In this document: positions 27,146 to 64,000 of the stretch, one piece after another
Layout: each line of letters starts with the position of its first letter
Position numbering within the stretch: the stretch's first letter is position 1
Assembly: GCA_046153645.1 (NCBI GenBank)
Contig: JBJXGI010000053.1
Location: forward strand, 15,512-79,511
Direction of reading: 5' to 3'
Length of the DNA: 64,000 bases
Source: Elusimicrobiota bacterium
GTDB taxonomy: Bacteria; Elusimicrobiota; Elusimicrobia; F11
Notes under the pieces: model-generated
Seen by the model: only the letters and a program-made list of their open reading frames with translations
The model's database searches: none
Told to the model about the DNA's origin: nothing
Position numbers and translations under genes: made by a program

Positions 27146-27146
27146 A

Positions 27147-27866
27147 TTATTTCATCCTCTTTTTCATTTCAAAAACCGCTTGTTGCATTCCAACCACAAC
27201 AGATCTAGCTACAATTGAAAAACCAATATTTAACTCATTAAACGAAAAACTTTTTACCAAAGCAGAAACATTATCGTAGTTAATCCCATGACCCGCATTC
27301 ACCAAAAGCCCCAGGCGCTGAGCTAAAAAACCAGTTGTTCTAATACGCGCTAATTCAAAAGCGATATTTTTCTGAGATCCTTTTTCAAAAACAGCCGCGT
27401 ATTTTCCCGTATGTATTTCAATGGCATCAGCCATAAGAACTGAAGCCAACTGAATAGATTCTATCTCGGGCTCAACAAACAAAGAAACTTTAATTTTTTT
27501 CTGCTGCAACTTTCGGATAACCAAATTCAATCGAGCCTGATATTTGGAAAGGTTTAACCCCCCTTCTGTTGTTAATTCTTCTCTATGCTCGGGGACTAAA
27601 CAAACCCAATCAGGACGCACTTTGAGTGCAAAATCTACAATTGCGGGCGCCAATGACATTTCCAAATTAAACGGGACCTTCAAATGTTTTGAAAAAAAGA
27701 TGACATCACAATCTTGAATATGACGGCGATCTTCCCTTAAGTGCGCGGTTATGCCCGTCGCCCCGCCCTTCACTGCTTCTTTTGCTAAAAAAACGGGATC
27801 CGGAAATGATTCGTGACGTGCCTGGCGAAGGGTCGCAATATGGTCAATATTCACACCTAACTTCAT
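27147..27866 (-). CDS. pdxJ: pyridoxine 5'-phosphate synthase
   Basis: 239 aa with MKLGVNIDHIATLRQAR, HLREDRRHI and NAGHGINY. Confidence 0.9.
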   Translation of the reverse strand: MKLGVNIDHIATLRQARHESFPDPVFLAKEAVKGGATGITAHLREDRRHIQDCDVIFFSKHLKVPFNLEMSLAPAIVDFALKVRPDWVCLVPEHREELTTEGGLNLSKYQARLNLVIRKLQQKKIKVSLFVEPEIESIQLASVLMADAIEIHTGKYAAVFEKGSQKNIAFELARIRTTGFLAQRLGLLVNAGHGINYDNVSALVKSFSFNELNIGFSIVARSVVVGMQQAVFEMKKRMK

Positions 27867-29380
27867 GCGTAAACTTTCATAGCCTCTTCAATTTTTTCCG
27901 TTATTTCAGAACCGTAACGATGCAATTGCATCTTATCAGGCCCCTCAATCATGATTCTCAGTAAGGGCTCCGTTCCTGAATAACGCACAAGAACTCTTCC
28001 CTGAGAACCCAGTTCACTCTCAATTTTTTTAATACATGAATGCGCCGCGGGTAGTTCATTAAGAGGAACACGTTTTTTAACCTTTAAATTCATTAACACT
28101 TGGGGATATTTCTTAATAAGTTCAGAAACATGAGAAAAAGGAAGTTTTGTTTTCTTGAAATATTTTAGTACTTGAAGGGCTGTCAAAAGCCCATCTCCCG
28201 TGGGAAGGTACTGCCCCATAATAATGTGGCCCGATTGTTCTCCCCCTAATATCGCTCCGGATTTTTGCATGGCCATAGAAACAAATCGATCACCGACAGA
28301 AACTTCTTCGCAAGAAATTTTTTGAGCGGCCAATGCCTTTTTAAGGCCTAAATTAGCCATCACTGTAATTACAACTTTATTCTTAACAAGAGCTTTTGAT
28401 TCCTTCAAATGCCCAGCGAGAAAAGCAATAATATGATCGCCATCCAACGAATGCCCTTTTTCATCAACGAAAATAACTCGATCGGCATCTCCATCAAATG
28501 CAATTCCTAAGTGACAATGTTCTTTACGAACCAATATTTCTAAATCAGAGGTATGCTGAGAACCGCATCCAACATTAATATTTCTTCCATTGGGCCTAGC
28601 ATGAATGACATGCAAATCTGCTCCTAAACGTCCCAAGATACGCGGGGCTAACAAAAAACTAGCTCCATTCGAACAATCCAAAGCAATTTTCAAACCATTC
28701 AATTTGATTCCTTCTAAGGTATCAATAAGAAAGGATTCATACACTTCTCTTAATTGTTCCACTTTTATCAACTTATCTTTCGAACTTTTAAGTGGAGGAG
28801 TCGGTTTTTTATGCCATTGAAAAAGAAGAGATTCAACCGTTTCTTCCCAAACATCAGGCCACTTTCGAGCTGACGCATTAAAAAATTTGATTCCATTAAA
28901 TTCAGGCGGGTTATGGGAAGCAGAAATCACAATACCAGAATGGAATTTCTGAGAGCGAACCAAGTGCGCAGCTCCAGGGGTACTTATTACACCAACAGAA
29001 AAAACATCAATTCCTTTTTGCTGTAACCCTTTTGCGATCATTTTTTCAATCCACTGACCTGACAAACGAGTATCCCGTGCAATAAGAATCTTAGGCCGAC
29101 CTTTCTTGACATGGTCCCTTAACACTTCTCCTGCAGCAAGACCAATATAATAAACGTCTTTTTTACTTAATGGCGATTTACCCGCAATTCCGCGAATACC
29201 ATCAGTTCCAAATAATTTTGGGGCTTTATTAGACAAGAGAATGAAATTCCTTTTGATTGAGTTAACATCAGATATGCATCGATAAGGGATTATACCAGAA
29301 AAACCAAATTCCTCCGAGGAGAATTGATAAAAAGAGTCTTTAAACACCAGGGCAGACGTTAAGGCAAATGAGCCAGCCAT
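27863..29380 (-). CDS. glmM: phosphoglucosamine mutase
   Basis: LFGTDGIRG, the active-site sequence ISASHNPPEFNGIKF, and FDGDADRV. The track start at 29380 adds about 48 non-conserved residues. A TTG at 29236 (MSNKAPKLFGTDGIRG) with AAAGGAA upstream is the more likely start. Confidence 0.9.
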   Translation of the reverse strand: MAGSFALTSALVFKDSFYQFSSEEFGFSGIIPYRCISDVNSIKRNFILLSNKAPKLFGTDGIRGIAGKSPLSKKDVYYIGLAAGEVLRDHVKKGRPKILIARDTRLSGQWIEKMIAKGLQQKGIDVFSVGVISTPGAAHLVRSQKFHSGIVISASHNPPEFNGIKFFNASARKWPDVWEETVESLLFQWHKKPTPPLKSSKDKLIKVEQLREVYESFLIDTLEGIKLNGLKIALDCSNGASFLLAPRILGRLGADLHVIHARPNGRNINVGCGSQHTSDLEILVRKEHCHLGIAFDGDADRVIFVDEKGHSLDGDHIIAFLAGHLKESKALVKNKVVITVMANLGLKKALAAQKISCEEVSVGDRFVSMAMQKSGAILGGEQSGHIIMGQYLPTGDGLLTALQVLKYFKKTKLPFSHVSELIKKYPQVLMNLKVKKRVPLNELPAAHSCIKKIESELGSQGRVLVRYSGTEPLLRIMIEGPDKMQLHRYGSEITEKIEEAMKVYA

Positions 29381-30585
29381 CGATCAGCGGAAACAACCCA
29401 TTGAATGAAGCCATCTGTCTTAATTTTTTTGCAAACACCCTGTTTATGAAGAAGTTGAATTGATACTGAAACCCCAAGTTTTTTTTGAAAATAAGAAAGC
29501 GATGGGGAGACGTCTTCTTCTGACGTTTTACATTCAATCAAACAAAGTATTTTTTTATCTTTAACCAAACAAAAGTCCACCTCGCGCTTCTCTTTGTCTC
29601 GGAGGTAGTGGAGGGAAATTTTTCCTTCTCCCATTGCTTCCCATGTTTTGACTGCTTTAAGGAGATGAAGAGCCACGACATTTTCAAAGCGATAGCCCGT
29701 CTCAGGAATTTCCACCCAATCGTAAAGATAGACTTTCGTTTCTTTTCTGAGTGAACGTGCCAACGTCCCTGTGTATGGAGTGACGCGGAAAAGGTAAAAG
29801 AAACGATCGAGAAGAAGTAGCCAATCACGAACCGTTTCAAATGCAACACCAATGTCTTCTTTTAAAGCGTTAATAGAAAGAGGGCTTCCAACACGCTCTG
29901 GAACAAGATGCGAGAGCATTTCGAGGAGCGAAAGGTCTTTGATGTGAACCATACTTCGGATGTCCTCTCTCAAAAGAAGACTCTTTCTCTCTTGAAACCA
30001 TCGATTGTAAAAACTTGTTGTCCCACGCAAAAACGGCTCAGGGAAACCACTGTACTGAAAAAGATCATCATATTTTGATCGAACAGACCCCGTTGACTCC
30101 GGAACGTCTACCAGCATCTCTTTGAACTCCTTGAGAGTGGTCCGTTTTTCATGTAGCTCTCCTAAACTCAAAGGGAAAAGTGGGATACTGAAATAACGCC
30201 CCAACAGACTGTCTCCGCCTTTTTTAAAAAGTTCAAGGCGACCGCTTCCTGTTACCAAAAAGCGAAACTCAGTCTTAAAATCATCATATGCCCCTTTCAA
30301 ATAATTTTTCCATCGACTGTATTTGTGGATTTCATCAAACACAACCAAAAACGGTCTTTTGGGATCCCGGTTCTCTTTTTGAAAAAAATAAGGATCTTTG
30401 AGCAGCTTCTTTTGATTGATCACATTATCCCAGTTAAAGTAGATACCTTGACCGAAATGGTTTCGATAATCTTGAGCCAGTGTCGTCTTCCCCACCTGAC
30501 GTGGCCCGCTTAGGAATGCCATCTTATTGAAAGCTTCAACTGTCTCTTTTAAAAGAGGGAGAGTGGTTCGTTTAATCATGAGCAT
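29359..30585 (-). CDS. AAA ATPase of the COG1373 type (AAA_14 + DUF4143-like C-terminal domain), paralog 1
   Basis: 408 aa with Walker A SGPRQVGKTT, Walker B LVVFDEIH and C-terminal EKREVDFCLV. It is co-linear with the ORF at 61057-62223. The real start may be the second ATG at 30579. Confidence 0.75.
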   Translation of the reverse strand: MLMIKRTTLPLLKETVEAFNKMAFLSGPRQVGKTTLAQDYRNHFGQGIYFNWDNVINQKKLLKDPYFFQKENRDPKRPFLVVFDEIHKYSRWKNYLKGAYDDFKTEFRFLVTGSGRLELFKKGGDSLLGRYFSIPLFPLSLGELHEKRTTLKEFKEMLVDVPESTGSVRSKYDDLFQYSGFPEPFLRGTTSFYNRWFQERKSLLLREDIRSMVHIKDLSLLEMLSHLVPERVGSPLSINALKEDIGVAFETVRDWLLLLDRFFYLFRVTPYTGTLARSLRKETKVYLYDWVEIPETGYRFENVVALHLLKAVKTWEAMGEGKISLHYLRDKEKREVDFCLVKDKKILCLIECKTSEEDVSPSLSYFQKKLGVSVSIQLLHKQGVCKKIKTDGFIQWVVSADRWLAHLP

Positions 30586-30613
30586 ATTTTAGACCTAAGT
30601 CTAATAAAGTCAA
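30586..30613 (-). promoter_or_regulatory. sigma70-like promoter candidate (TTGACT-16 nt-TAAAAT) abutting the ATPase start codon
   Basis: The minus strand reads TTGACTttattagacttaggtcTAAAATatgctcATG. The -10 box ends 6 nt before the second ATG. Confidence 0.4.
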
Positions 30614-30628
30614 GACTTTTTTAGACTT
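30597..30628 (-). promoter_or_regulatory. 15-bp-arm imperfect palindrome between the giant-gene stop and the ATPase start
   Basis: The minus strand reads AAGTCTAAAAAAGTC-TT-GACTTTATTAGACTT, with one mismatch. It overlaps the -35 candidate. Confidence 0.6.
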
Positions 30629-30636
30629 GAGTCGAA

Positions 30637-33600
30637 TTAAGCGCCAACAGCCACAACTCGCGCCAACCCAATAACAAACCCGAGATTTCGAACTGGAAAC
30701 TCTGACATGGCTGACAGCAATTCTTCTAGAGAAAGGTATTTGATGTGGTACAGAATGGAGGACTGAGTGGGTCCTGATGCCATCAGTTGCAACAACAGAT
30801 CTCTTGATATCACAAAATCCGGCAACAGTTGATTGCTTGCTTGTAAGGCGGTCATCGTTTGCTCAAAGACGATTTTGTTTATTTTTCCTTTTGAGAAAAG
30901 GCCCTTTTGTGGCATCAGTTTAATCTGCCACTGAAGGTTTTTTCTCAGGAGTTTCTCAAATTCTTTTTGATCATTTTCATCTATGACGAATTCGAAATTC
31001 ATGGAACGATTTAGATACTGCTTTAACTTTTTACTTCTTAAATCTTTAGCCCGAAGCACCATTTGAACCGCCTTTCCTTTCAAATGTCGCTTGTTTATGG
31101 TGTTTTCGTCTGGTGATCTTGCCACCTTTTCTGCCAACTCCAAGGCCTCTTCTGGTTCCAATTTACGCTCTTTATCTTTTAAGGTGTTTTCTAATTCCCG
31201 CACCAATAATTCCAATTTTTCCGGGTCAGATTGGCTTATCGCTTGGCGCGCCAAAGGATTATCCAAGCCCATTTTGACAACTTGTCCCGTGAGGCTATTT
31301 AAAATGTCGCCGGCCCGCTTAGATTGAATTAAATCCGCTTGCTCTGAAATTCCCCACTTCTTAGCCACATCCGTCAAAACCGCCTCTACAACCAGTACGA
31401 CCACATTGGCAAACAGAAAATAGAAGGAAACAAAGAGAACAACATAATCGACGAGAGAATGAGAAAAGAAAATAAGTGCGGGGATATAAACGAGAAGTGA
31501 AATAATAACCATGAAAATATTTACGTAGATGCCGTACATGGCAGGCGGCCCGCGTGTTTCCCACGGCATTTTTCCGGTGAACATACCTCGAATTATTTTC
31601 AAGGTACCATAATCGAGTCGTTTTCCTTCAGTCGGCCCACCAATCAAGTGCCCGCCTTCATGAGAGGTGATTCCACCGAAAAAAACTGTTCGGACAAGCC
31701 AATTTAACCACATGAGATTATTTCTTTTCGCCCAGTTGGAATTAAAAATATTGGCGAAGAGGGAAGGGGTTTCTGATGTTAAAGTTGCGGGTGATAAAAG
31801 CGTCTGATTCTGTCTTCGGAATATTTCCAGATAAAGGGAGATTCTTTCAAGAATCAATGCTAAGTCAGAGTTAATTCGATCGTAACCGATTCGTTGCGCA
31901 ATAATTTTGATGAGGTCAAAACTTGTTACCACCTGCCCTCGATGCGCGGAGAGAAACGCCTCGCGTACCAATTCGCGAATGAACAATCGACGAAGAAATG
32001 GCGGAAGGTTAAAACGATTTTGGAGATAAACTTCCTCTACCACATCAAATGGCACATTAATATTTTTAATATCAAACGCTGTCGATGGGAACTCCAAACG
32101 AAATACTGTTTTCCCATTCTGAGAGAGAAGATCAAAATGGGCACCCAACCATTCCGATATCATTTCGATCTGATTTAGTGCAACGCCATTTTCCCCAGAA
32201 AGATTAAAATATTTTTTATCTTCACCTCTAATGGTTGTAAACCGCCAAGCAGTCAATATTGAAAAAATGTCAGCTGCAGATAAATCGGTCTTATGACCTA
32301 GTTGAGTAAGAATGCGAATGGATTTCCAAATTTTTGGCTCTTCTCTATTATAGTGAACAACTTCATCCGTATCACCCGTACCTTCTTGCAGCCGAAGGCG
32401 TAACGATCTTATGATGACAGGAATCTGTTTTCGAATTTTTTCAGGATCGATGACACCGGGATTTGAAATTTCTAATGCCAAGGTTCCCAATTTATAATTT
32501 TTGAAAATTCTAATTTTGATCTCGCTGGTGGACCACTTAGGATTTGATCGCGCCCATGCATCGTGAGCATTTTTTAGAATTTCGCGGACGCTATGCATAA
32601 GTAAATATATGGCCCAAGGATCGTGAGCCGTCACATGGGCTTTTTGGTTTATGAAATCTCCGAGCTTTTTATCACCATATTCAGCACTTAAAATATAATC
32701 TTTATCTTCAGAAGATCCTTCCCACACCAGAACCATTTCGTCTTTGGAGTCGTTTTGTGAATTGCCAAACGTCAGTGGCCGCTGTCCTATTTTCCACGCT
32801 CTCTTATTAAAATCACGGTGCGCCCTAACGCCACTCCACCAAGAAATTGCCGCTGCTTTTTTGATCTCTTTCCATCCCACTGTCAGCCAGTCTCTTTCCT
32901 CATCATCTTTGGGGTCGTGTTTTTCGACAAACCCCTCTTTCGCATGTTCCCCCGCTTCCCAAATTGGCGCGAAACGGATGGAAATGAATTTTTTTCTTAA
33001 TGTCCACACAGCCAATGGAATGGTGAAGGCAAATGAATAAAAAACAGAACTATGATAAGTTGCGATAAAAAGAAATGTAGCATTAAAAATAAAATGAATT
33101 ACTCCAAAGAAGATATAACCAGAAGTGTAGGTAGACTGAAGTGTAGCTGGAGATTTTATTATTTCCCCCTGATATTTTCCTTTTAGAGCGGTTTCATTTT
33201 TATCTCCATATTGCTGCTCAATCAATAGTTGATTTAAATTTGGGAATAAATTGCGAACAGCCAACACAACGGGATTCCTGGTCTGTTGATATAAAGGTAA
33301 TGTTACAGGTGTAATTTTCTCCAGTCTTCTCCCTGGAAATAAATTATTTTTATCTATAGGAAGGTGAGAAGCATTAAAATCAAAGAATCCATGAAGAACA
33401 TACCCAGTCCAATTAATTTTAAATTGAGAAATTTTATTTGGCTGGCCCTGAGTTAAAGTAATTGAATTGGCTTGGGATGAACAATTACCAAGACCCTGAA
33501 GAACGAATCCGAAAAATTGAGCCGGAGTTAAATGTTCAGCTAAAACAATGCTTTCGGCATCCCAAATAAAAGGAAGTTCTTCACCGTTTATTTTAATGGT

Positions 33601-36600
33601 CCCATAATTAGCTCTGTAAAGCTGCATATGGACAATTCCGCGTTCGGCAAGGCGTTTATACAACAAACCATTATCGTTATTAATTTTCTCAAGAACGCGG
33701 TGCAACTCAGAAGTTTTTCGAAGATTTTCTCGCTCAGGCGCATTTGCAGCCAGATATTCCTTTGTAAATGGTTGATATTTTGAAAATTGATTGTTTATGT
33801 TCTCTATTGAACTTGTAATCAAATCTCTAGGCGGCAATCCCAATACAACCATTCCTGCCGATCTATCTTGTGGCGTAGTGTCACCAGGCAATTCATAAAG
33901 GCACAAAGGAGGAGGCGTAAGAAACCCCTTTTTTAAAAGTGCTTGCCCTCCTAAAAATTCCGCAACAGCGTCTTCGAAATTCAACCCATATAAAGGATTA
34001 AAGTGATATTCCTCTGTGTAATAAATCCCACTGGGAGTGAAGTTCTCATCTCCAGGCTGAAAATGAGCTGGGACTAGACCCTCTCGTCTTAACCTTTCGG
34101 CAGGATCAAAAATGATAGCTGCGTTTTCTAAAGTACCGCCTTTCACTTTGATCGTCTTGAGAGGGAACCCATTAATCATGACAACGTCTGGAAGATCAAT
34201 TTCTAAACTACGTTCAAACTTATTGCTGTCGCCTTTGTGGGAATTGCGCCGGTCATAATCAACTCCAAGTTTTAATTTTGAAAATGGAGTTTTCACAATT
34301 TTTTCTATTTTGTCTTTCAGCCAAGGGTAAATTGCAATCAATTGTGCATAAACATCCGTTGTTTCATGCAAAATAAACTCGCGACTTTTGTCATTTTGTG
34401 GCAATGGTGGCTGTTCCGCGGTGGGAACATTAGTTATATCTACCGACACTAAATCGACTACGCCGTTCAAAACAGCGCTAATTTGTGGAATGATGGAAAA
34501 GTCAATCGCATTCAGCAATTCCTCTGCTGCTTCGTTTCCTCTCAAAAGTGTGGATTGCATGCGCCTTTTTAATTCATCTCTGGGTTCTTTATTCCTAATA
34601 GCTTCAAGCCATGCCCCTGCAATTTCATTAAGTCGTGGCAAGGAAGACTCACCAACACCCACATGTTTTATGGCCATCATCAACTGATTCAAAGCATCGA
34701 GAGCGTTAGGGTTTATGGAATCGGGTGCCAAGGGTTTATAAGGTTCTTTTTTCTTTCGACTAAACAAATCCCAAATGGCTAAATACGCCCCCTCTTTCAA
34801 GGCCGATTTTGAACCGGATGTGGCTGCACTTAATAAAAACATACCTACGTTGTAAGACATGTGAACCAAAATAGCAGAGACCAAACTGTTTGATTCGACA
34901 TAGGTCAGAACAATTAAAGTTGTGCCTCCAGTTTGAAGGCCCAGACGAGCGATGAAGGCAGTAACAAAATTTATATTTTTTTCGACAGCATCTTTTTTCG
35001 CCAAACTAAAACTTCGCGGAATGTGGAATGCAAAAAACGTAAAACCCATAAGAATGGGACTTAAACCCCATATCCCTATTAAAAGCTCACGAAAAATCAA
35101 CTCTTCCAGAAAAGGTAAAAAAATAAAAATGCTACCCACAGAAAAAATAACCACCCTTCGTTCATAAACAACTTTCACAAATTCACCAGTCCGATCAAAC
35201 CAGGCTGACAAAACCCCCCGCGGAAATTTAATGGCCACTTTTCCGGCAAACCCAGAAAATTTTTTAACAAGTTCATAAAGCGCGAAAATACTGGCTTGCG
35301 AGGAAGGGATGGGCGCTTCCGCCAAAAACAGTTTTTCTCCTTCAAACAATTGGTCGAGCGGAGTTTTTTCTTGCGCGAACACAGTGAGATAGGACGACCC
35401 ATTTTCTGAATTGACCTTCGTGATTTTAGGAGTAAAAGAAATAACCGTGTAACCTGCTTCGCTTAAACGTTGGTCGATGCCGGCCGAATGGAAACCACCC
35501 GTAACCAAAACTGCGTTTTGGTAATTTCCAAAACCCAAATCACAATGATCAATTGATTTTTTTAGTTTTGGAGATTTGTTTGTTATTTGATATTTGGTAT
35601 TTGAGTTTTCAATGATCTTTAGAAAATTACTTGCCATTTTTTCATCTCGAATTTCCGCTTGCTTATAAAAATTCTCAAAAGACTCTAAGGCAAACCCCTC
35701 CCCGCCTTCCCTCCCCACCGAAAAACGTGGGGAGGAATTTATATATTCTCCCCATTCTTCTTTTGTTAGTGAAAAGTCCACTAATTTTTTAGTTAAAGAT
35801 AATGCGTGTGATTCTTTAATCAATTGTTTTTCAACGTCTGTGTTAGCGAGTGAGGAATAAATTGATTCCTCCATTTTTTCAATACTTTTGAATAAATCAT
35901 CTGCGTTAATTTGGTCGCTTAAAAGCACATACTGAAGATACGAATTCATCGCAGGATAGCGGGACAACGCAATTTCTTTTTTATCGCAGAGATTTTTCAA
36001 ACGAGCGTAAAAATCGGCATGAGAAATATTTCCCAAACGATAAGCCACACTGGTCGCAATCAGAGATTGAGACTCAAAAGTGCCTAGCTTAGCCAAGAGC
36101 TGTGAGAGAAGTTGACCTCGCTCCCTTTCAACGGCAGCGAAATTAAGGCGGGATTCCAAATGAATCGCTTTCAAGAATATTTGAATCTGAAAATGCTCAT
36201 TAAAACCCTTATCCGTGTCGTCGCCCCGGCGGAGGCCGGGGTCCAGGTCGTTAACCGGCTTTTTAGAAAAAAGTTTAAAGCTGGAAAGAAACTCCACATA
36301 TTTCCCCAAAGACAAAGTATCGCCACGGTACAATTCGACCTGGCAATCAAAATCGTAAAGAGCTGCATTAAAAATTGTTTTCTTCTTTTGAGCAAGTTCG
36401 GTTCTTAGCTCATTTAACTGCTGCTTATTCTTTTCAATATGAGAGGCCGATTGCCGGTAAGCTTCTACATTTGCCTTATAATGAGCGGAATCATCAACCC
36501 CGATAAATCGAGGAAGGGTTTGCCCCGAACGCAGTTGAAGAGTGAAACCCGTATAAATCGGCCCAGAGACTTTATTTTCCCGAAGCAAATAGTTGGCCAC

Positions 36601-37152
36601 TTTTCTAGTTGCCTCTGGTGGAAACACCCTGAAAGGGTTTAAATCGATGGGGTTAAACGCGCCTTCCAACGCAATGAGATCAACCTGATTACCATCAATA
36701 AGTCCTTGAATGGTTTTGCCGATATTTTTTTGGGCTTCGGCGTTTCGATGGACATCTTGGATGTGAATGACGATTCGTCCATTTTTTCCCTCACCCTGAC
36801 CCTCTCCCCGACGGGGAGAGGGAAGAGTGATTTCTTGAATTGTTCCGTATTGGGTTGATAAGTTTTGAAACAGAGAAGAGAGTTGGGGTGCAATATCCTT
36901 TGGAACCGATTCTTCAAATTGGCGTGGCAAAGACGCTTGAACATGAGGAAGTTGCTGCAAGATCGAGTGAGAATTTTCCAGAGCAACATTTGAAGGCAAT
37001 TGCGCTAATTGGATTGACTTTTTGTTGTCAACAGAACGTCGACGCTCTGCCCAAACAGACTTCTTTGGGTTATGGGCAAATGCACAATTTGTGGCGAAAT
37101 AAATAATGGCCAACGCAGTGGAAATCGATCGAATAAAAACTCGCTTTTTCAT
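30637..37152 (-). CDS. giant (2171 aa) mosaic membrane protein, paralog B
   Basis: Uninterrupted 6516-nt ORF with an ATG start and a clean signal peptide, MKKRVFIRSISTALAIIYFATNCAFA. Domain sub-features are listed separately below. Confidence 0.9.
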   Translation of the reverse strand: MKKRVFIRSISTALAIIYFATNCAFAHNPKKSVWAERRRSVDNKKSIQLAQLPSNVALENSHSILQQLPHVQASLPRQFEESVPKDIAPQLSSLFQNLSTQYGTIQEITLPSPRRGEGQGEGKNGRIVIHIQDVHRNAEAQKNIGKTIQGLIDGNQVDLIALEGAFNPIDLNPFRVFPPEATRKVANYLLRENKVSGPIYTGFTLQLRSGQTLPRFIGVDDSAHYKANVEAYRQSASHIEKNKQQLNELRTELAQKKKTIFNAALYDFDCQVELYRGDTLSLGKYVEFLSSFKLFSKKPVNDLDPGLRRGDDTDKGFNEHFQIQIFLKAIHLESRLNFAAVERERGQLLSQLLAKLGTFESQSLIATSVAYRLGNISHADFYARLKNLCDKKEIALSRYPAMNSYLQYVLLSDQINADDLFKSIEKMEESIYSSLANTDVEKQLIKESHALSLTKKLVDFSLTKEEWGEYINSSPRFSVGREGGEGFALESFENFYKQAEIRDEKMASNFLKIIENSNTKYQITNKSPKLKKSIDHCDLGFGNYQNAVLVTGGFHSAGIDQRLSEAGYTVISFTPKITKVNSENGSSYLTVFAQEKTPLDQLFEGEKLFLAEAPIPSSQASIFALYELVKKFSGFAGKVAIKFPRGVLSAWFDRTGEFVKVVYERRVVIFSVGSIFIFLPFLEELIFRELLIGIWGLSPILMGFTFFAFHIPRSFSLAKKDAVEKNINFVTAFIARLGLQTGGTTLIVLTYVESNSLVSAILVHMSYNVGMFLLSAATSGSKSALKEGAYLAIWDLFSRKKKEPYKPLAPDSINPNALDALNQLMMAIKHVGVGESSLPRLNEIAGAWLEAIRNKEPRDELKRRMQSTLLRGNEAAEELLNAIDFSIIPQISAVLNGVVDLVSVDITNVPTAEQPPLPQNDKSREFILHETTDVYAQLIAIYPWLKDKIEKIVKTPFSKLKLGVDYDRRNSHKGDSNKFERSLEIDLPDVVMINGFPLKTIKVKGGTLENAAIIFDPAERLRREGLVPAHFQPGDENFTPSGIYYTEEYHFNPLYGLNFEDAVAEFLGGQALLKKGFLTPPPLCLYELPGDTTPQDRSAGMVVLGLPPRDLITSSIENINNQFSKYQPFTKEYLAANAPERENLRKTSELHRVLEKINNDNGLLYKRLAERGIVHMQLYRANYGTIKINGEELPFIWDAESIVLAEHLTPAQFFGFVLQGLGNCSSQANSITLTQGQPNKISQFKINWTGYVLHGFFDFNASHLPIDKNNLFPGRRLEKITPVTLPLYQQTRNPVVLAVRNLFPNLNQLLIEQQYGDKNETALKGKYQGEIIKSPATLQSTYTSGYIFFGVIHFIFNATFLFIATYHSSVFYSFAFTIPLAVWTLRKKFISIRFAPIWEAGEHAKEGFVEKHDPKDDEERDWLTVGWKEIKKAAAISWWSGVRAHRDFNKRAWKIGQRPLTFGNSQNDSKDEMVLVWEGSSEDKDYILSAEYGDKKLGDFINQKAHVTAHDPWAIYLLMHSVREILKNAHDAWARSNPKWSTSEIKIRIFKNYKLGTLALEISNPGVIDPEKIRKQIPVIIRSLRLRLQEGTGDTDEVVHYNREEPKIWKSIRILTQLGHKTDLSAADIFSILTAWRFTTIRGEDKKYFNLSGENGVALNQIEMISEWLGAHFDLLSQNGKTVFRLEFPSTAFDIKNINVPFDVVEEVYLQNRFNLPPFLRRLFIRELVREAFLSAHRGQVVTSFDLIKIIAQRIGYDRINSDLALILERISLYLEIFRRQNQTLLSPATLTSETPSLFANIFNSNWAKRNNLMWLNWLVRTVFFGGITSHEGGHLIGGPTEGKRLDYGTLKIIRGMFTGKMPWETRGPPAMYGIYVNIFMVIISLLVYIPALIFFSHSLVDYVVLFVSFYFLFANVVVLVVEAVLTDVAKKWGISEQADLIQSKRAGDILNSLTGQVVKMGLDNPLARQAISQSDPEKLELLVRELENTLKDKERKLEPEEALELAEKVARSPDENTINKRHLKGKAVQMVLRAKDLRSKKLKQYLNRSMNFEFVIDENDQKEFEKLLRKNLQWQIKLMPQKGLFSKGKINKIVFEQTMTALQASNQLLPDFVISRDLLLQLMASGPTQSSILYHIKYLSLEELLSAMSEFPVRNLGFVIGLARVVAVGA
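31363..31710 (-). other. paralog B, membrane-embedded HExxH block
   Basis: FFGGITSHEGGHLIGG is followed by hydrophobic segments (YGIYVNIFMVIISLLVYIPALIFF...). The equivalent sequence in paralog C is VPIHELTHAYV. Confidence 0.5.
32083..32610 (-). other. paralog B, GHKL (HATPase_c)-like domain
   Basis: N-box-like REILKNAHDA, LALEISNPGVID, and a C-terminal GENGVALNQIEMISEWLGAHFDLLSQNGKTVFRLEFP. The last resembles the G2 box and final strand of histidine-kinase ATPase domains. Confidence 0.5.
33523..34200 (-). other. paralog B, kinase-like spacing with substituted catalytic residues (very tentative)
   Basis: IKVKGG ... GIVHMQLYRANYG ... LPFIWDAES. The spacing resembles the beta3-Lys / HxD-x4-N / DFG arrangement, but the catalytic Asp positions are not conserved. 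Confidence 0.2.
34828..35145 (-). other. paralog B, CPBP (CAAX protease/Abi)-like intramembrane protease core
   Basis: FLPFLEELIFRELL (EExxxR), FFAFHIP (FxxxH) and ILVHMSYNVG (HxxxN/D), all within hydrophobic segments. Confidence 0.65.
35695..35740. repeat. GC-rich palindromic mini-element, in frame in paralog B (encodes SPRFSVGREGGEG)
   Basis: The plus strand reads cccctccccgccttcCCTCCCCACcgaaaaacGTGGGGAGG, with a 9-bp stem at 35710-35735. It has the same C-rich tail plus hairpin layout as the element at 36788. Confidence 0.7.
36217..36250. repeat. GC-rich hairpin, in frame in paralog B (encodes DPGLRRGDD)
   Basis: CCCCGGC-ggag-GCCGGGG at 36224-36241, inside an otherwise AT-rich gene. Confidence 0.65.
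36788..36827. repeat. GC-rich palindromic mini-element, in frame in paralog B (encodes LPSPRRGEGQGEG)
   Basis: The plus strand reads ccctcaccctgaCCTCTCCCCgacGGGGAGAGGgaagag, with a perfect 9-bp stem and 3-nt loop at 36801-36821. Paralog A lacks about 13 residues at exactly this point. Confidence 0.8.
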
Positions 37153-37200
37153 ATTAAAGCAAGTATAAAAAACTGGCCTTAAGATTATCTTAATTTCAAA

Positions 37201-38340
37201 TTAATTTTGGTGAGGACGATGTAAATGATTTGTTACATAAGGAATGTTGAGGTAATAACGGGCGTACCGATTTTCGCCTTTTTTTATCAATGCATTTTTC
37301 ATGACCAAGCCAACCAAATCGCGCGTTGTTGTGGCGGCAGATGCTTTGGTGATAGCGATGTATTTTTTAGCGCTCAATCCACCTGCAAATCCTTCGGGTC
37401 CTTCCCGGAAGAGGCGCATGACCGCTTTTTCCTGCCGTTCATTCAGTTGACCTCTCAAACGATCCAGAAATTTCATTTTTTCAATCATAAATTCTACGTG
37501 GCCTGCAGTACGCTTTTGCGCTTCAAGAGCTGTCGTAGAAAACCAAGAGAGCCAGCGCGTCATTTCATTTTTTTTATTCGCTTCTTCCAAGACATCGTAG
37601 TAAGCATTTCGTTTACTTAATATTGTTGTAGCTAAGACTGTCAATGTTGCCGCCCCAAGACTTTGCGACAATATCTTTTCAGAAATGGCCCGAGCAAGAC
37701 GGCCATTACCATCCTCAAAAGGATGAATAGAAACAAAATAAAGATGAGCTATTCCAGATCTTGTCAATGCGGGGAGAGGGTCTCGTCCCGTAGGCCCTGT
37801 GCGGTTAAACCACTCAATGAAACGTTTCATTTCAGCGGGCACATGTGATGAAGGTGGTGCTTCAAAATGGATTTTCGGTGAATGAAGGGCACCTGAAACA
37901 ACTTGCATGGGTTCAAGATAAGACCTATAAGAACCAATATTTTTCAGGTCTCTTCGACCTTTCATCAACATTCGATGCCATCGGGAAAGTGTTTGATGTG
38001 TTAATGGAGTTGAAAAACCACGGTAAAGATCGACCATCATTTCGGCAATTCCTTGTTCTGCCGGTTCTATAGGATTTTTATCAGCCGCAAGACCCAGTTG
38101 CCGACAAATGGAAGACTGAACACTTTTTCTGTTAAGAATTTCCCCTTCAATCTCGGAGGTCGTGACGGCTTCTGTACTCATGATTTCGACAGTGAATTGC
38201 TCTTTGTCACTTAAGGAAAGATATTTGGTTATACCGACAATAGAACCAGCACCCAATAAAAAAAGCTCTTCTGCCTTGGTAAGGAGCTGTTTTTTCCAGG
38301 TAAATTTGGGCCAATCAGATTGTTGCCAGTTCCATTTCAT
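37201..38340 (-). CDS. Fic-family protein (class II, with N-terminal inhibitory motif)
   Basis: 379 aa with the canonical Fic motif HPFEDGNGRLAR and an (S/T)xxxE(G/N) inhibitory motif, TSEIEG, at aa 61-66. Confidence 0.85.
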   Translation of the reverse strand: MKWNWQQSDWPKFTWKKQLLTKAEELFLLGAGSIVGITKYLSLSDKEQFTVEIMSTEAVTTSEIEGEILNRKSVQSSICRQLGLAADKNPIEPAEQGIAEMMVDLYRGFSTPLTHQTLSRWHRMLMKGRRDLKNIGSYRSYLEPMQVVSGALHSPKIHFEAPPSSHVPAEMKRFIEWFNRTGPTGRDPLPALTRSGIAHLYFVSIHPFEDGNGRLARAISEKILSQSLGAATLTVLATTILSKRNAYYDVLEEANKKNEMTRWLSWFSTTALEAQKRTAGHVEFMIEKMKFLDRLRGQLNERQEKAVMRLFREGPEGFAGGLSAKKYIAITKASAATTTRDLVGLVMKNALIKKGENRYARYYLNIPYVTNHLHRPHQN

Positions 38341-38409
38341 GAGCGATAGACTCCTTTTCTATCACTCATATTACATGATTTTTTGATTGATAGACTTTTC
38401 GAACAGAAA

Positions 38410-39180
38410 TTAAACAGTCTCTTTACTTCGAAGAAGATGAATAAGCTCTTCACGCAATTCATCGGGGTCCATTTGCGTTTTCAGCTTGCCATCTATAGCT
38501 AAAGAGACGGCTCCTGTTTCTTCTGATACACAGATAGACCAGCAATCGCTGACCTCTGAAATTCCGACCGCAGCTCGGTGACGAGTCCCCAACCACTTCG
38601 ATAAACTGGCATCTTGAGAAACAGGGAAAATACATCCTGCTGCGACAATTCGATTGGACTGAACAATAACGCCCCCGTCATGAAGAGCGGCTGGCGGCTG
38701 AAAAATAGTTAACAATAATTCCCGGGTAATTTCTGCGTTCAGTAAAGTGCCGGTTTCTAAATAATCACGAAGCCCCGTATTTCTCTCAATAGCAATAAGC
38801 ATGCCCATTTGGCGACGAGAAGCTTCTTTGACGGCCGCCACAATTTCATTCACCACCGTCAATTCCTGCTGCATAGAAAATCGACTTGACGTTTTTGTCC
38901 CCAACTGAGCCAACGCAGAGCGCAATTCAGGCTGAAAAACCACTGCCAAAATAACAAAGCCTGCAATCCAAAATTTCTCTAACAACCAATTTAGCGAAGG
39001 CAAACCAACAAACTGAGATAAGGCGGTAAGGCCAGCCAAAACAATCAAACCAACCGCAATTTGAACAGCTCTCGTGCCCTTAATAAGAATGAGGAACTTA
39101 TAAATTAAAAAACCCACAAGGCTGATATCAACCACGTGAATAAGATATTTTTTCCAAATAAAAATAAAAGATTCAATCAT
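38410..39180 (-). CDS. cdaA: diadenylate cyclase (membrane-anchored, DisA_N domain)
   Basis: 256 aa with three N-terminal hydrophobic helices, then HDGGVIV, GTRHRAAVGISE and VSEETGAVS. Confidence 0.9.
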   Translation of the reverse strand: MIESFIFIWKKYLIHVVDISLVGFLIYKFLILIKGTRAVQIAVGLIVLAGLTALSQFVGLPSLNWLLEKFWIAGFVILAVVFQPELRSALAQLGTKTSSRFSMQQELTVVNEIVAAVKEASRRQMGMLIAIERNTGLRDYLETGTLLNAEITRELLLTIFQPPAALHDGGVIVQSNRIVAAGCIFPVSQDASLSKWLGTRHRAAVGISEVSDCWSICVSEETGAVSLAIDGKLKTQMDPDELREELIHLLRSKETV

Positions 39181-49600: not shown

Positions 49601-49630
49601 TATATAACTTTTTTGATTGAATAATTTCAC
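46607..49630 (-). CDS. large secreted TPR / YbgF-like repeat protein
   Basis: 1007 aa with a signal peptide and repeated units of the form YxxAxxxFxxFxxxYPxSxxAxxAxxxxAxxY. The track uses a GTG start. ATG at 49597 (MKLHSYLFLFFVV) is an alternative. Confidence 0.75.
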   Translation of the reverse strand: MKLFNQKSYIPMKLHSYLFLFFVVLFGFGASTQAARFKPNRKSTKDEISFRSQDPKTFYRSLNPLLEQQSPDGVVSIKARATVADILFKTENYREAAQIYLQLTDIPMADQYQFSSFQYRLAESYFYMGLYGEAYDQFSRIRQEGHQSLKNEAILGMAMAALAQGNRSSAQAHMDILLLENDYYKTYGRALYPIGIMLFQNEQYQRSLGFFERDQEDSKNIYFSGISYRRLGQMSKALLNFQRLTQKFPGTVWAQRGSFEVAETYYQQKDFPLAAQSFQRGLVEYPNGTLGAEAQFRIACTDIHKKQYQAVLNRLEPMTKLDLRPSMMDKIKHLVIESWVQLDRVQDLVNNIKKKGRARDRSPDENYQLMWALAALGKHQEALAQAEEGLGNFRDVELTPKILLVQGFCYDKLNKSAEALASFQTVVDQFPKSAYAARALHLMALSYVKAQRWQELVTHVNHYWAELPSDLREKYPEVEFWITEGHLSLGNFNLAESRYQQFLSKAPNDTLTPYAYLGLAVAKAQNNKMDAGLQTLQQFASLAKQKNREDWMSLATLQSANVYYNQKKYEQAIGYYRSFQKDYPKDPKIPQALYQEGQALSRLEYYTDAVNVWEKLVDVYPQNSLSEKAQFQTARTLFDLGNTTAAVKAYQTYIVKYPASDKIKGARLQLAHSYYNAGDYKSAIPRYQEFLALYPNAEEAISVQDFLQMSYVQAGKSELEIEKLTMGQAKSQVLADLYWEKGAKAYNDKDYKAALIYFEKILIDFPASSLAAQSAFYRGECFYLDQKYDEATGAYRNFVIQFPNDNSAPTAQFRLGVSLFNLNRFEEAALTFQDLVKKYPDAPEAATAAENIPLAYAKIGRMEESEQAFEKLAQNTSDPIKKASLNLQIGQMKEKNGLAAEAIKYYEQVPVNHPQYAEAVYSVASIYSKSGQVDLEQKSYEKLLSVDPKNDPYRIAGISRLAEIYIGLGQAQKALDTYGDVVINASDETALSNAKSRVEELKRVLQQ

Positions 49631-61056: not shown

Positions 61057-62223
61057 ATGCTAAAAGACCGCTACTTAAGTGCTCCTATTGTTGAAGATCT
61101 TAAAAACAAGATGGTATTCATTGGCGGCCCCCGCCAAGTAGGAAAAACAACTCTCAGTGAAACTCTTATTGCCCATCATTACGCCAAAACCGTTTATTTG
61201 AACTGGGATCAACGCCAAGACCGACAAAAAATGATGGCTTCCGAATGGCCTGGGGATGCCAAGTTAATTATTTTAGATGAGGTTCATAAATATAAAAAAT
61301 GGAAACAGTTAATCAAAGGCGCCTACGATACTCACAAACATCACTTTTCTTTTATTGTCACTGGAAGCGCGCGACTTAACCTCTATCGAAAAGGCGGGGA
61401 TTCGCTTCAAGGACGATATCATTATTATGTCTTACATCCGTTCAGCTTAGCCGAACTATCCAACATTTACCAAAAACAAACCCCCTTTTCTGAACTCAAC
61501 TTTAGGTCACCACTCCCTGAATTAAAAACACTCAATCAATTCGGTGGATTCCCAGAACCTTTATTGAAGCAAAATGAACGCGATTTAAGGCGTTGGCATA
61601 ACGAACGGATAGATCGTCTTTTTAAAGAAGACATCCGTGACACCAGTAATATCAAAGATATTGAAACGATGAAATTGTTAGGGGATCTTCTCCCTGCTCG
61701 ATCAGGGTCACTTTTGTCTATCAACTCTCTAAGAGAAGATTTAGAAGTCAGTCACCGATCCGTTTCGAATTGGTTGAATATTTTGGAATCTTTTTATTAT
61801 GCCTTTCGAATTTACCCCTATACAAGAAGTGAAATTCGCTCTCTCAAGAAAGAATCTAAACTCTATTTATGGGACTGGTCAGAAATCTCAGAGGAAGGCC
61901 CTCGTTTTGAAAACCTTATTGCTTCTCATTTGTTGAAATTTTCTGACTATTTACATGATCGAGAAGGCTATAAAACAAAACTATACTTTTTAAGAGATCT
62001 CTCAAAACGAGAGGTTGATTTTATTCTTACTATTGATGGGAAACCTTGGTTTGCTGTCGAAGCAAAAACACAAGACAAAACCCCTTCCCCTCATCTTAAG
62101 TATTTCAAAAACCAATTTAAAATTCCTTTTAGTTACCAAGTCATTCAAAAAACAGGCACTGATGTTTTTAAAGATGACATTCGAGTCATATCCGCTGACA
62201 AATTTTTATCTGCTTTGGCTTAA
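61057..62223 (+). CDS. AAA ATPase of the COG1373 type (AAA_14 + DUF4143-like), paralog 2
   Basis: 388 aa with GGPRQVGKTT, LIILDEVH and SKREVDFILT. It is co-linear with the ORF at 29359-30585. Confidence 0.75.
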   Translation: MLKDRYLSAPIVEDLKNKMVFIGGPRQVGKTTLSETLIAHHYAKTVYLNWDQRQDRQKMMASEWPGDAKLIILDEVHKYKKWKQLIKGAYDTHKHHFSFIVTGSARLNLYRKGGDSLQGRYHYYVLHPFSLAELSNIYQKQTPFSELNFRSPLPELKTLNQFGGFPEPLLKQNERDLRRWHNERIDRLFKEDIRDTSNIKDIETMKLLGDLLPARSGSLLSINSLREDLEVSHRSVSNWLNILESFYYAFRIYPYTRSEIRSLKKESKLYLWDWSEISEEGPRFENLIASHLLKFSDYLHDREGYKTKLYFLRDLSKREVDFILTIDGKPWFAVEAKTQDKTPSPHLKYFKNQFKIPFSYQVIQKTGTDVFKDDIRVISADKFLSALA

Positions 62224-64000
62224 GCGGCCACTAATACACTTCGGAAGAAGTCAACCAAAGAATTGACTTGTAAAACATCCAACGGCGGGAACAGAATAAT
62301 TTGGTTGTTACGTGACAATCCAACCGCTAATTGAAACCCATGAATAAAGATGAGCGGATACTGACCCTGAAATGAAGCAAGCTCTTCTTTCGAAATAGTG
62401 GCGTCTTTAAATTTATTATTCTCAACACGAACATCAAAAATAATTTCTGATTGATCTTCTAAGAGTTTGTATTTTCTTAACAACGTTAAAGCCTTCTTCA
62501 CTTCATCTTCCGTTTCTGTTGAATCAACAACGATATCAGTAGAAACATGAAGCCCTGCTTCCATCAAACGTGCCATAACGGCAACACGAGTTACCTTTTC
62601 AGATTTTTCTCCTTTCAACAACAATAAATGCTTATTTGATACCTTTGTTTCAGATCTCCGCTCTCCGACTTGAATTCCTTTGGCTATGATGAGTGCCATT
62701 AACATTTCCACCAATTCTTCTATTTCTTCTTGATTGAACTTCTTTTTATTTTCCTCTTTTATCTTTGCTGTAAGCCCCTGTACCAAACTTCCTTCAAAAT
62801 CAGAATCTTTGACCCACTGAGATAGCTGCGCTATCAATGCAGCCTCATTATCAAATTGAGCTTGACCTGTTTGTCCGACACCAAATGGTTTTATTTCACC
62901 TAACACATCACTAATATTATTATTCACAAGACCTGCACCCAATTGAGAAAGCCATTCACTCCCCTTCTCTCCCCTCTCCCGTGGCAACGGGAGAGGGTTA
63001 GGGTGAGGGATCAATCCAGCTACCTCTACCAAAACCAACACCACCACCAAACCCACAACCAAAGGCGCATAAATAACACTTAAGACAATCCCCACCAGAG
63101 CCCCAGCCTGAACTCCATAAGCCACAGTTTCTCTTTTAGAAACATAGGCATGTGTCAGTTCATGAATGGGAACAAGGAATATGTTTAGGAAAAAATGTGT
63201 GCCAAACCGAACAATAAAGCGGGGATGAGTGAGAAGACGAAAAAGAAAGGGATTCACTACAAATTGCGCAGGCGTTGTTTCTGTTTTTGGTTTGAATTCG
63301 AGAAAGTCAATTCCTCTAGATGAAACAGCGTCAAAACCATATAACTTTAGCTTGCCATTTAGCTGTGTAGATGGCTCGCCAGCCAGCTCTGTGGCTGGAG
63401 GCCCCGTTTCTCCTGTTCCTCCTAAATATTTTTCTATCCTGATAAACGAAAAAACAGTCAACCAGAGAAAACCGAAGAAACTCAAAACAATCAGTGACAC
63501 TGTTTTTATAAGCCCAGCTGTTTCTCCCTCACCGAGTAATCCAACAATGAGTCCAGTGATAGAAACAGGAGCAATCACAGCCAGTGTAAGTGAGGCATTT
63601 CTCAGGTTGATGGGGTTTGTAACAACTTCAGAACCAGTATCGTTAACATCAAGCTCATAGAATATCTCCAACTCTTTAACTGCTTTAAATATAGACCTCC
63701 ATGCTACCTCTTGATCAACTATACGTTGATTCATCTCATTTATGGACTCAGGAACGTCTTGTGGTCCAATAGCAATCGCTGGATTATTTTCATCTAAACC
63801 ATATTTTTGAAAAAGAGTAGCAGTTATTATGCCGGAAGGTATTTTCTGGGAGTGAAAATCCCCAATAGGATAGTACAATCTGCTTCCTGCTGGAGCGCTT
63901 CTAGAAAGACGAGACCGAACGTGAACCAATTCGTCCATTGGCGTAATACGATCTCTCAAAGGGGTTCGGTATTTCCGAAAAATCTGTTCTCCAGAAAGTC
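62220..64000 (-). CDS. giant mosaic membrane protein, paralog C; N-terminus lies beyond the right window edge
   Basis: The track starts it at TTG 63959, but the frame stays open to position 64000 (LSGEQIFRKYRTP precedes it). It has the membrane HExxH block VPIHELTHAYV and a C-terminal module that aligns by eye with the last roughly 350 aa of paralog B. Confidence 0.75.
   Translation of the reverse strand, partial: LSGEQIFRKYRTPLRDRITPMDELVHVRSRLSRSAPAGSRLYYPIGDFHSQKIPSGIITATLFQKYGLDENNPAIAIGPQDVPESINEMNQRIVDQEVAWRSIFKAVKELEIFYELDVNDTGSEVVTNPINLRNASLTLAVIAPVSITGLIVGLLGEGETAGLIKTVSLIVLSFFGFLWLTVFSFIRIEKYLGGTGETGPPATELAGEPSTQLNGKLKLYGFDAVSSRGIDFLEFKPKTETTPAQFVVNPFLFRLLTHPRFIVRFGTHFFLNIFLVPIHELTHAYVSKRETVAYGVQAGALVGIVLSVIYAPLVVGLVVVLVLVEVAGLIPHPNPLPLPRERGEKGSEWLSQLGAGLVNNNISDVLGEIKPFGVGQTGQAQFDNEAALIAQLSQWVKDSDFEGSLVQGLTAKIKEENKKKFNQEEIEELVEMLMALIIAKGIQVGERRSETKVSNKHLLLLKGEKSEKVTRVAVMARLMEAGLHVSTDIVVDSTETEDEVKKALTLLRKYKLLEDQSEIIFDVRVENNKFKDATISKEELASFQGQYPLIFIHGFQLAVGLSRNNQIILFPPLDVLQVNSLVDFFRSVLVAA
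62952..63010. repeat. GC-rich palindromic mini-element, in frame in paralog C (encodes PHPNPLPLPRERGEKGSE)
   Basis: The plus strand reads ccccttctctcCCCTCTCCCGtggcaaCGGGAGAGGGttagggtgaggga, with a 10-bp stem at 62972-62997. Its reverse complement matches the element at 36788 (CCCTCACCCT-R-ACCCTCTCCC...GGGAGAGGG). Confidence 0.8.

Follow-up and report, generated by a model that had tools for sequence, protein, structure and literature searches.

A giant mosaic gene of an Elusimicrobiota bacterium belongs to a multi-paralog family with a constant, probably exported head and hypervariable tails

The stretch of 64,000 nucleotides analysed here (Elusimicrobiota bacterium, GenBank assembly GCA_046153645.1, contig JBJXGI010000053.1, positions 15,512 to 79,511; hereafter the window) contains a single open reading frame (ORF) of 2171 codons, and the locus raises the question of whether such a frame is a genuine gene and, if so, what kind of protein it encodes. 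A reading made from the sequence alone (hereafter the sequence-only reading) had described the product as a mosaic membrane protein that combines three protease-like and two nucleotide-binding-like modules. The mosaic was found to be genuine. What that reading had missed is a large family of proteins that share a constant N-terminal head and carry hypervariable tails. Because the protein studied here (the target) is one member of such a multi-paralog family with swapped tails, the interesting unit is the family and not one particular combination of domains.

The frame was uninterrupted, as had been claimed, and its translation gave 2171 amino acids with no internal stop codon. At about 41% GC, where stops make up about 6% of random codons, we estimate the chance of 2171 stop-free codons to be about 1e-59. 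The GC content is 35-43% for the window and about 0.40-0.43 for the giant ORF. GC and GC at third codon positions (GC3) are fairly even over the modules of the target (GC 0.38-0.44), and a chimeric assembly is therefore not hinted at. The 2171-codon gene is genuine, and an assembly artefact is a very unlikely origin for it.

A database search with the whole protein identified 189 proteins at E<=1e-3. The 119 of these that were listed are 1199-3737 aa long and mostly come from metagenome-assembled genomes (MAGs) of Elusimicrobia. By local BLAST these 119 homologs align only to residues 1 to about 640 of the target, i.e., to the head, which all of them share. Coverage was zero over residues 750-1500, and a handful matched pieces of the last 650 residues. 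When one genome per species was scanned with an alignment of the head (185,579 species), 332 encoded relatives were found, the best of them 47% identical. Taxonomy and copy numbers were taken from the best 80 of these 332 loci. All 80 belonged to Elusimicrobia MAGs, individual genomes contributing 4-8 copies to these 80 alone (PL23a_bin.39, eight; fen_1177, seven; SRP173033_co1_190, seven).

Behind the head, the listed homologs carry a wide assortment of domains according to their precomputed Pfam content. These include domains of transcription and nucleic acid metabolism (sigma-70 regions, SNF2 helicase), enzymes of central metabolism (hexokinase, TIM, GAPDH, PPDK, FBPase, glutamate dehydrogenase), other enzymes (inositol monophosphatase, NUDIX, radical SAM, GNAT), proteases (rhomboid, M48, S8) and repeats (TPR, HEAT). 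The tail domains of other members look functional. The TIM-like module in one tail retains the catalytic motifs GHSEARR and YEP..IGAG, another tail holds sigma-70 regions 2 and 4, and in P0003 hydrophobic clusters flank two or three sigma-70 units. A single protein may contain a membrane module more than once: the HExxH module described below occurs four times in P0134 (5101 aa), and the hairpin-plus-juxtamembrane module three times in P0121 (3152 aa).

The tail of the target was searched separately. A full HMMER search of 1.84 billion representative proteins with residues 925-2124 returned 18 proteins only; 14 of the 18 were new, and nine of these 14 carry the family head. Judged from these matches, the tail modules of the target belong to a pool that is restricted to the family. 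P0002, the closest relative, shows 54% identity in the head and 39% over the last approximately 400 residues, while its middle consists of SNF2 helicase and methyltransferase domains. Since P0002 shares only the head and the C-terminal part, there is no co-linear full-length homolog of the target among the proteins found, and the paralogs differ by exchanged modules. It is thereby largely shown that Elusimicrobia possess a large family with many paralogs, restricted to this lineage, in which the head is constant and the tails are hypervariable. The family is apparently undescribed. Its members are named hypothetical in the databases, or after one tail domain, e.g., "sigma-70 family". Full-text literature searches aimed at giant, multidomain or Tiki proteins of Elusimicrobia did not find a description of it, absence there being no proof, and in a preprint on giant genes Elusimicrobia appear only as suppliers of genomes for comparison.

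The N-terminus of the target looks like a cleavable Sec signal peptide, in accordance with the sequence-only reading, and so do the N-termini of the family. These share the n/h/c pattern of the target, with positions -3 and -1 occupied by small residues ahead of a conserved (H/Y)xPExNFWxERR. The head would consequently be expected outside the cytoplasm. The motifs quoted for it earlier were located at residues 131-135 (IQDVH), 161-165 (ALEGA) and 551-556 (TGGFHS). In an alignment of 24 diverse heads the mean column identity was 37%, and 25 columns were invariant, including D133, H135, E163, G552, G553 and H555. The putative catalytic tetrad D133-x-H135, E163 and H555 (in GGFH) was found invariant in 118-120 of 120 sequences. 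Because this Asp/His...Glu...His tetrad never varies, the head is most likely an active hydrolase, i.e., a protease or an esterase, outside the cytoplasm.

The resemblance to TraB/GumN/Tiki proteins that had been suggested for the head holds at the level of the family. PF04187 (ChaN, Tiki superfamily) matched 19 of the 24 family heads at E<=1, with a best value of 4e-7. When full proteins were searched six of seven matched, with only P0085 scoring above the curated cut-off (28.5 vs 27.7 bits). An AlphaFold2 model of the target head (pLDDT 74.7, pTM 0.71) has six strands with flanking helices and is interrupted by a helical insert of about 300 aa (residues 222-517). D133/H135, E163 and H555 each lie just past a strand in this model (127-133, 159-162 and 546-552, respectively). 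The TIKI fold has a core of parallel sheet with a 2His/2Glu motif at strand ends, formed in RRSP by E3900, H3902, E3930 and H4030 (PMC6254334). The head tetrad has a 2His/2acid motif at strand ends in the sense of that definition, and the spacing of 28 from H135 to E163 equals that from H3902 to E3930 of RRSP. Although profile and fold support are individually weak, the head is probably a remote and active member of the Tiki superfamily.

Compared to the TIKI/TraB/PrgY/GumN/ChaN/erythromycin-esterase superfamily, the heads are alike in being a presumably exported domain with a probable alpha/beta fold and parallel sheet and with acid-x-His, Glu and GxxH at predicted strand ends, in their weak but repeated PF04187 matches, and in the transmembrane helices that follow the domain. 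The closest layout is that of proteins of the PrgY/TraB type, where membrane helices come after an extracellular Tiki-like domain. The target head differs by its helical insert and by QDVH in place of the GxxH first motif, and the target itself falls below detection by Pfam and Foldseek. Furthermore, the head here tops proteins of 1200-5600 aa with interchangeable tails and many copies per genome, which is undescribed for the known members of the superfamily.

The first module of the tail is the CPBP core that the sequence-only reading had proposed. The sole Pfam match of the target protein was to PF02517, the CPBP/Rce1-like (Abi) proteases, with an E-value of 1e-4 and 22.9 bits against a cut-off of 22.4 (residues 669-769, profile positions 5-92 of 93). 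The hydrophobic helices hold all three motifs in intact form, namely EExxxR (E683-E684..R688, in EELIFRE 683-689), FxxxH (F706..H710, in FFAFH 706-710) and HxxxN (H764..N768, in HMSYN 764-768). The target resembles the known proteases in the placement of its motifs and in a score just above the cut-off; it differs in that the module is internal to a giant protein, and the match is marginal and sequence-based. The CPBP segment had no match among PDB sequences, and a search of these with the whole protein gave noise only. Because the module is not shared by the other members compared, intramembrane proteases are not universal in the family.

The region with kinase-like spacing and substituted catalytic residues that had been described next to it was supported as a protein-kinase-like fold, i.e., that of an atypical kinase or a pseudokinase. 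Five relatives of this module were found with HMMER among the 1.84 billion representatives. In the resulting alignment of six sequences K1004, E1065, H1175 and D1198 are kept, and N1182 is N or Q. The Asp of the HRD motif is replaced by Q1177 (H1175-M-Q1177, with HMQLYRAN for HRDLKxxN) and by S, S, Q, N and N in the five homologs. Because the HRD catalytic Asp is absent, the module is not a canonical kinase and would be a pseudokinase or carry out other chemistry. For an AlphaFold2 model of the module (pLDDT 75.9, pTM 0.79), all 50 of the 50 matches listed by Foldseek against the PDB were kinase-like, led by SelO (1.1e-5) and WaaP (2e-5) and followed by PRPK/Bud32, YdiU, ROP5/ROP2 and APH(2''). 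A profile of the module listed kinases among PDB sequences at E 0.1-1.5 only.

SelO has no canonical catalytic Asp and AMPylates proteins (PMC12409994). The predicted fold of the target module is like that of SelO/YdiU, WaaP, Bud32/PRPK and ROP2/ROP5 (Foldseek E 1e-5 to 1e-3, probability 1.0). It keeps the beta3 Lys, the alphaC Glu, the catalytic-loop Asn and the DFG Asp, and the catalytic Asp is missing as in SelO. It differs from these atypical kinases in that the identity is 8-14%, no Pfam kinase family matches, TM-scores are low, at 0.3 (query) and up to 0.58 (target structure), and the module is placed between membrane modules. P0127 carries the kinase-like module at its start; the idea that this represents a stand-alone kinase-like gene was dropped, as P0127 runs past the end of its contig.

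The kinase-like module is followed by a transmembrane hairpin with a juxtamembrane part. The whole unit occurs three times in P0121 with hmmsearch E-values of 1e-67 to 1e-72; with phmmer and the soluble part as query, these matches were broken up into five stretches.

The GHKL/HATPase_c-like fold suggested for the next stretch was supported at the level of motifs only. EILKNAHDA and ISNPG were located at 1524-1532 and 1562-1566. They correspond to an N-box, E1524..N1528..D1531 (ExxxNAxDA), and to a G1-like motif, S1563-N-P-G, from which the Asp is lost. A G2-like motif is found in G1653-E-N-G-V-A-L, and the stretch ends in GKTVFRLEFP. Homologous segments are found in P0021 and P0012, which have DNGG/ENPG and GxGLGLSH. 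The N-box and the G2-like motif are present in all three segments, and the G1 Asp is present in P0021. A profile of these segments gave noise only against the PDB. Based on its motifs, the assignment to GHKL is a possible lead.

The membrane-embedded HExxH block (SHEGGH, 1830-1835) was found to be part of a recurrent transmembrane module, in agreement with the sequence-only reading. Fifteen copies were present in 12 of the 134 proteins compared, four of them in P0134. Of 12 aligned copies, 11 retain HExxH and one has HDxxH. The motif H1831-E-G-G-H1835 follows directly after a hydrophobic segment (1810-1830). N1878, E1923 and D1940 are invariant and are candidate ligands only. There is a weak resemblance to a minimal site-2 protease. 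Like the M50 site-2 proteases (MJ0392, 3b4r), the module has HExxH in a membrane helix and two more helices with conserved polar residues. Compared to these proteases it is only about 160 aa long, occurs in up to four copies per protein and matches non-significantly, and no third-ligand motif of the LDG type (NxxPxxxLDG) was evident in it. The idea that TPSLxAN generally marks module junctions or cleavage sites was rejected, since this motif is nearly confined to the HExxH module (seven occurrences).

The C-terminal module is common to P0002, P0003, P0011 and P0124 (E 1e-19 to 1e-39) and always forms the extreme C-terminus. The coordinates of all modules are given in Table 1.

Table 1. Modules of the giant protein and other family genes in the 64,000-nucleotide window
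Feature	Residues	Position in window	Strand	Basis or remarks
Whole giant gene		30637..37152	(-)	ATG start, 2171 codons plus stop, single ORF
Predicted Sec-type signal peptide	1-26	37075..37152	(-)	MKKR, hydrophobic stretch, AFA|H; read from the sequence
Family-defining head	27-640	35233..37074	(-)	Probable remote Tiki/ChaN/erythromycin-esterase-like alpha/beta domain
CPBP/Rce1-like intramembrane glutamic-protease module (putative)	664-785	34798..35163	(-)	Pfam and motifs; about 4 hydrophobic helices
Protein-kinase-like fold module	922-1345	33118..34389	(-)	6-sequence alignment, AlphaFold, Foldseek
Transmembrane hairpin and juxtamembrane module	1346-1480	32713..33117	(-)	FAPIWEAGEHAKEGF...AHRDFNKRAW; hydropathy
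GHKL/HATPase_c-like stretch (possible)	1515-1715	32008..32610	(-)	Motifs only, statistically unproven
Three-helix transmembrane HExxH module	1787-1948	31309..31794	(-)	H1831-E1832-x-x-H1835, MPWxTxGP
C-terminal module	1949-2171	30640..31308	(-)	Ends in hydrophobic tail RNLGFVIGLARVVAVGA
Second family member, 2119 aa		5819..12178	(-)	Same head, tetrad intact (IQDIH, VEGA, GGGFH), different tail
Probable third family member		62220..64000	(-)	N-terminus beyond window end; transmembrane HExxH (IHELTHAY), then C-terminal module of about 245 aa

We favour, with moderate confidence, the explanation that the target is a giant inner-membrane protein in which an exported hydrolase head is joined to an exchangeable tail, and that it acts as a device for signalling or proteolytic processing. 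Every member would begin with a Sec signal peptide and an exported head of about 600 aa, with a region that spans the membrane and then a hypervariable tail behind it. This tail would be built of modules separated by transmembrane hairpins or bundles, which in other members include sigma-70 domains and housekeeping-type enzymes and which in the target would follow each other in the order CPBP, kinase fold, hairpin with juxtamembrane part, possible degenerate GHKL, HExxH and C-terminal domain. An extracytoplasmic hydrolase head would in this way be coupled, via membrane-embedded protease-like modules, to nucleotide-binding-type regulatory modules located in the cytoplasm. The three protease-like parts may all be catalytically competent. 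The probable role would be signalling or regulated proteolytic processing, maybe self-cleavage, rather than that of a metabolic enzyme, and the family would diversify by exchange of tail modules among paralogs.

Several observations weigh against this explanation. Proteolysis, processing and signalling are all roles that we infer. The head is only remotely linked to the Tiki superfamily. Pfam gave no match for the target head at E<=1, the PF04187 matches of the family mostly cover profile positions 126-204 of 213, i.e., the last 60-80 positions round the GGxH strand, and in the Foldseek search of the PDB with the head model Bcr135 (3b55, 2rad) and EreC (6xcs) appeared at ranks 2, 3, 14 and 16 with non-significant values (E 1-3, probability 0.08-0.23). 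The CPBP module was not found in the other 133 proteins compared. For the HExxH module the best PDB match of its profile, 3b4r (the site-2 protease MJ0392), has HExxH in register at an E-value of 2.1, and single members matched M48 at 0.2 and M50 at 0.54 in Pfam, all below significance. Pfam found no match in the GHKL-like stretch of the target, with HATPase_c_2 reaching an E-value of 0.25 for one of the three homologous segments, and an hhalign comparison to the ATPase domains of EnvZ, PhoQ and HK853 placed the N-box and G1 in register at P 0.076 and a probability of 0.7%, which is below significance (the three sequences were confirmed as HATPase_c by Pfam). Helices were counted from hydropathy, to within one helix, and the membrane side of each module was deduced from this count; because the topology rests on crude hydropathy, the side assigned to each module is only inferred. 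Finally, no conserved gene neighbour that could hint at a pathway was found upstream of the 80 loci or at further sampled loci.

The alternative that survives best, although we consider it rather improbable, is that the family is a passive tether or scaffold. It would anchor enzymes or pseudoenzymes, sigma factors and binding modules to the inner membrane, the head would be a periplasmic anchor or ligand binder, and the protease-like transmembrane modules would be non-catalytic spacers. This is consistent with the ordinary cytoplasmic enzymes and sigma domains that lie between hydrophobic clusters in the tails of other members, with the loss of canonical catalytic or adenine-binding residues from the kinase-like and GHKL-like modules of the target, and with ChaN, the nearest Pfam family, being described as haem-binding. 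However, the head tetrad does not vary across about 120 sequences whose overall identity is only about 37%, the three CPBP motifs are intact, and 11 of 12 copies of its module retain HExxH. The tether is weakened by this, because such conservation is expected of active sites.

Less probable still, and in our opinion doubtful, is that the proteins are exported multi-effectors resembling polymorphic toxins, in which an N-terminal trafficking domain delivers a variable enzyme cargo, the hairpins are translocation segments and the proteases serve autoprocessing as in MARTX. The signal peptide, the constant head and the variable tails exchanged among many paralogs would fit such a role. The TIKI fold occurs in the MARTX effector RRSP, and the target is flanked by SoFic-like and PDC-S01-like genes. 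On the other hand, the giant proteins showed neither a known toxin domain nor a match to PADLOC, and neither an immunity-like gene beside them nor a conserved neighbour was found. The cargo is of housekeeping type (TIM, hexokinase, sigma-70), three other sampled copies are located among housekeeping genes, and the hydrophobic segments, with Kyte-Doolittle values of up to 2.8 over 19 residues, are expected to stop transfer in the membrane of the producer.

That the ORF is an assembly chimera or results from genes run together is hardly credible: the window is probably MAG-derived, as judged from its relatives, a co-linear homolog is absent and the kinase-like module recurs in P0127, a protein without a head, but the frame is stop-free and even in composition, the layout of head plus variable tail is present in hundreds of independent assemblies, some with contigs above 1 Mb, the window has two further genes of this kind, one of them probable, and the module borders are in frame and beside hydrophobic segments.

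The two further giant genes of the window differ in how closely they resemble the target. The earlier claim that an N-terminal module is shared with the 2119-aa protein was confirmed, as residues 128-610 of the target are 26% identical to it (blastp E 7e-38) and the family profile matches at 1.5e-88. The tail of this paralog had no match among the 134 proteins compared; it contains a divergent UDPGP-like region (PF01704, E 5e-5, just above cut-off) and a weak match to DUF218. The ORF from 62220 to the end of the window is probably a third giant family gene within the 64 kb, and probably the third paralog with which, in the sequence-only reading, the target shares its C-terminal 240 aa or so, since it has the same layout of a transmembrane HExxH and a C-terminal part of about 245 aa. 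That likeness could not be reproduced in the sequences: blastp found none at E<10, hmmsearch gave E about 8 and hhalign P 0.06-0.15. Residues 1925-2171 of the target matched none of the window ORFs of at least 80 aa, and there was no significant match between the 62220..64000 gene and the modules of the target. Its C-terminal module, which ends hydrophobic, matches the C-terminus of P0008 instead (E 2e-23).

The target is located in a run of genes on the same strand, ftsH, tilS, cdaA, Fic, target, AAA_14/DUF4143, glmM, pdxJ and glmS, where cdaA and glmM are set apart by the Fic, giant and AAA_14/DUF4143 genes. Both neighbours of the target (37201-38340 and 29359-30585, both (-)) match profiles of defence systems, the DUF4172+Fic protein that of SoFic (E 5e-40) and the AAA_14+DUF4143 protein that of PDC-S01 (E 2e-50). 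The giant proteins match none of the PADLOC defence profiles. A role in defence was dropped for this reason and in view of the three family genes found among housekeeping genes. Synteny with P0002 was rejected, its neighbourhood being different, as was a conserved upstream partner gene, for which the largest cluster comprised three of 80 loci. The family gene P0095 (L084 8001-13871, GCA_016721625.1) is located between spoVG and a glmU-like/prs/pth cluster, and the target (window 25289-39180 compared) between cdaA and glmM/glmS. Both are loci for UDP-GlcNAc and cell-envelope precursors; these are two cases only, and maybe a coincidence. A 1007-aa protein encoded at 46607-49630 (-) consists nearly entirely of TPR repeats with strong matches to YbgF/BamD-like profiles and is unrelated to the giant family.

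Short GC-rich perfect hairpins were observed in frame within coding sequence at 36800-36822, 36224-36241, 35710-35735 and 62972-62997. Three of them are located in low-confidence loops of the target head, where they encode the peptides RRGEGQGEG, PGLRRGD and PRFSVGREG. The one at 62972-62997 is in the 62220..64000 gene and encodes PLPLPRERGEKG; its 9-bp stem (CCCTCTCCC/GGGAGAGGG) is identical to that of the hairpin at 36800. Hairpins with a perfect stem of at least 8 bp and at least 70% GC numbered three in the whole window, compared to 0.05 in shuffled sequences. The same loops of the head hold unrelated insertions in family members of other genomes, and the hairpins look like small palindromic elements that landed in tolerant loops.

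A bolder view, which we regard as a long shot, is that the family embodies a hitherto unrecognised mode of cellular organisation. Elusimicrobia would make dozens of sigma factors, of glycolytic and other housekeeping enzymes and of regulatory modules as polyproteins threaded through the membrane, all behind one common exported hydrolase head. Built-in CPBP, rhomboid, M48 and HExxH proteases would release or switch the modules upon extracellular events, and paralogs would recombine their modules.

The family represents a considerable cost to the cell, as a small genome carries several of these genes, each of 4-17 kb, and it is confined to one poorly known phylum. If confirmed, it would be a natural example of domain shuffling on a large scale, misleading automatic names would be corrected, and a new remote branch of the Tiki superfamily and a new kinase-fold family without the catalytic Asp would be added. 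Should the explanation we favour be true, so that an active extracytoplasmic hydrolase is tied to exchangeable cytoplasmic enzymes and sigma domains, these proteins would represent a new architecture by which Elusimicrobia couple metabolism and transcription to the cell exterior.

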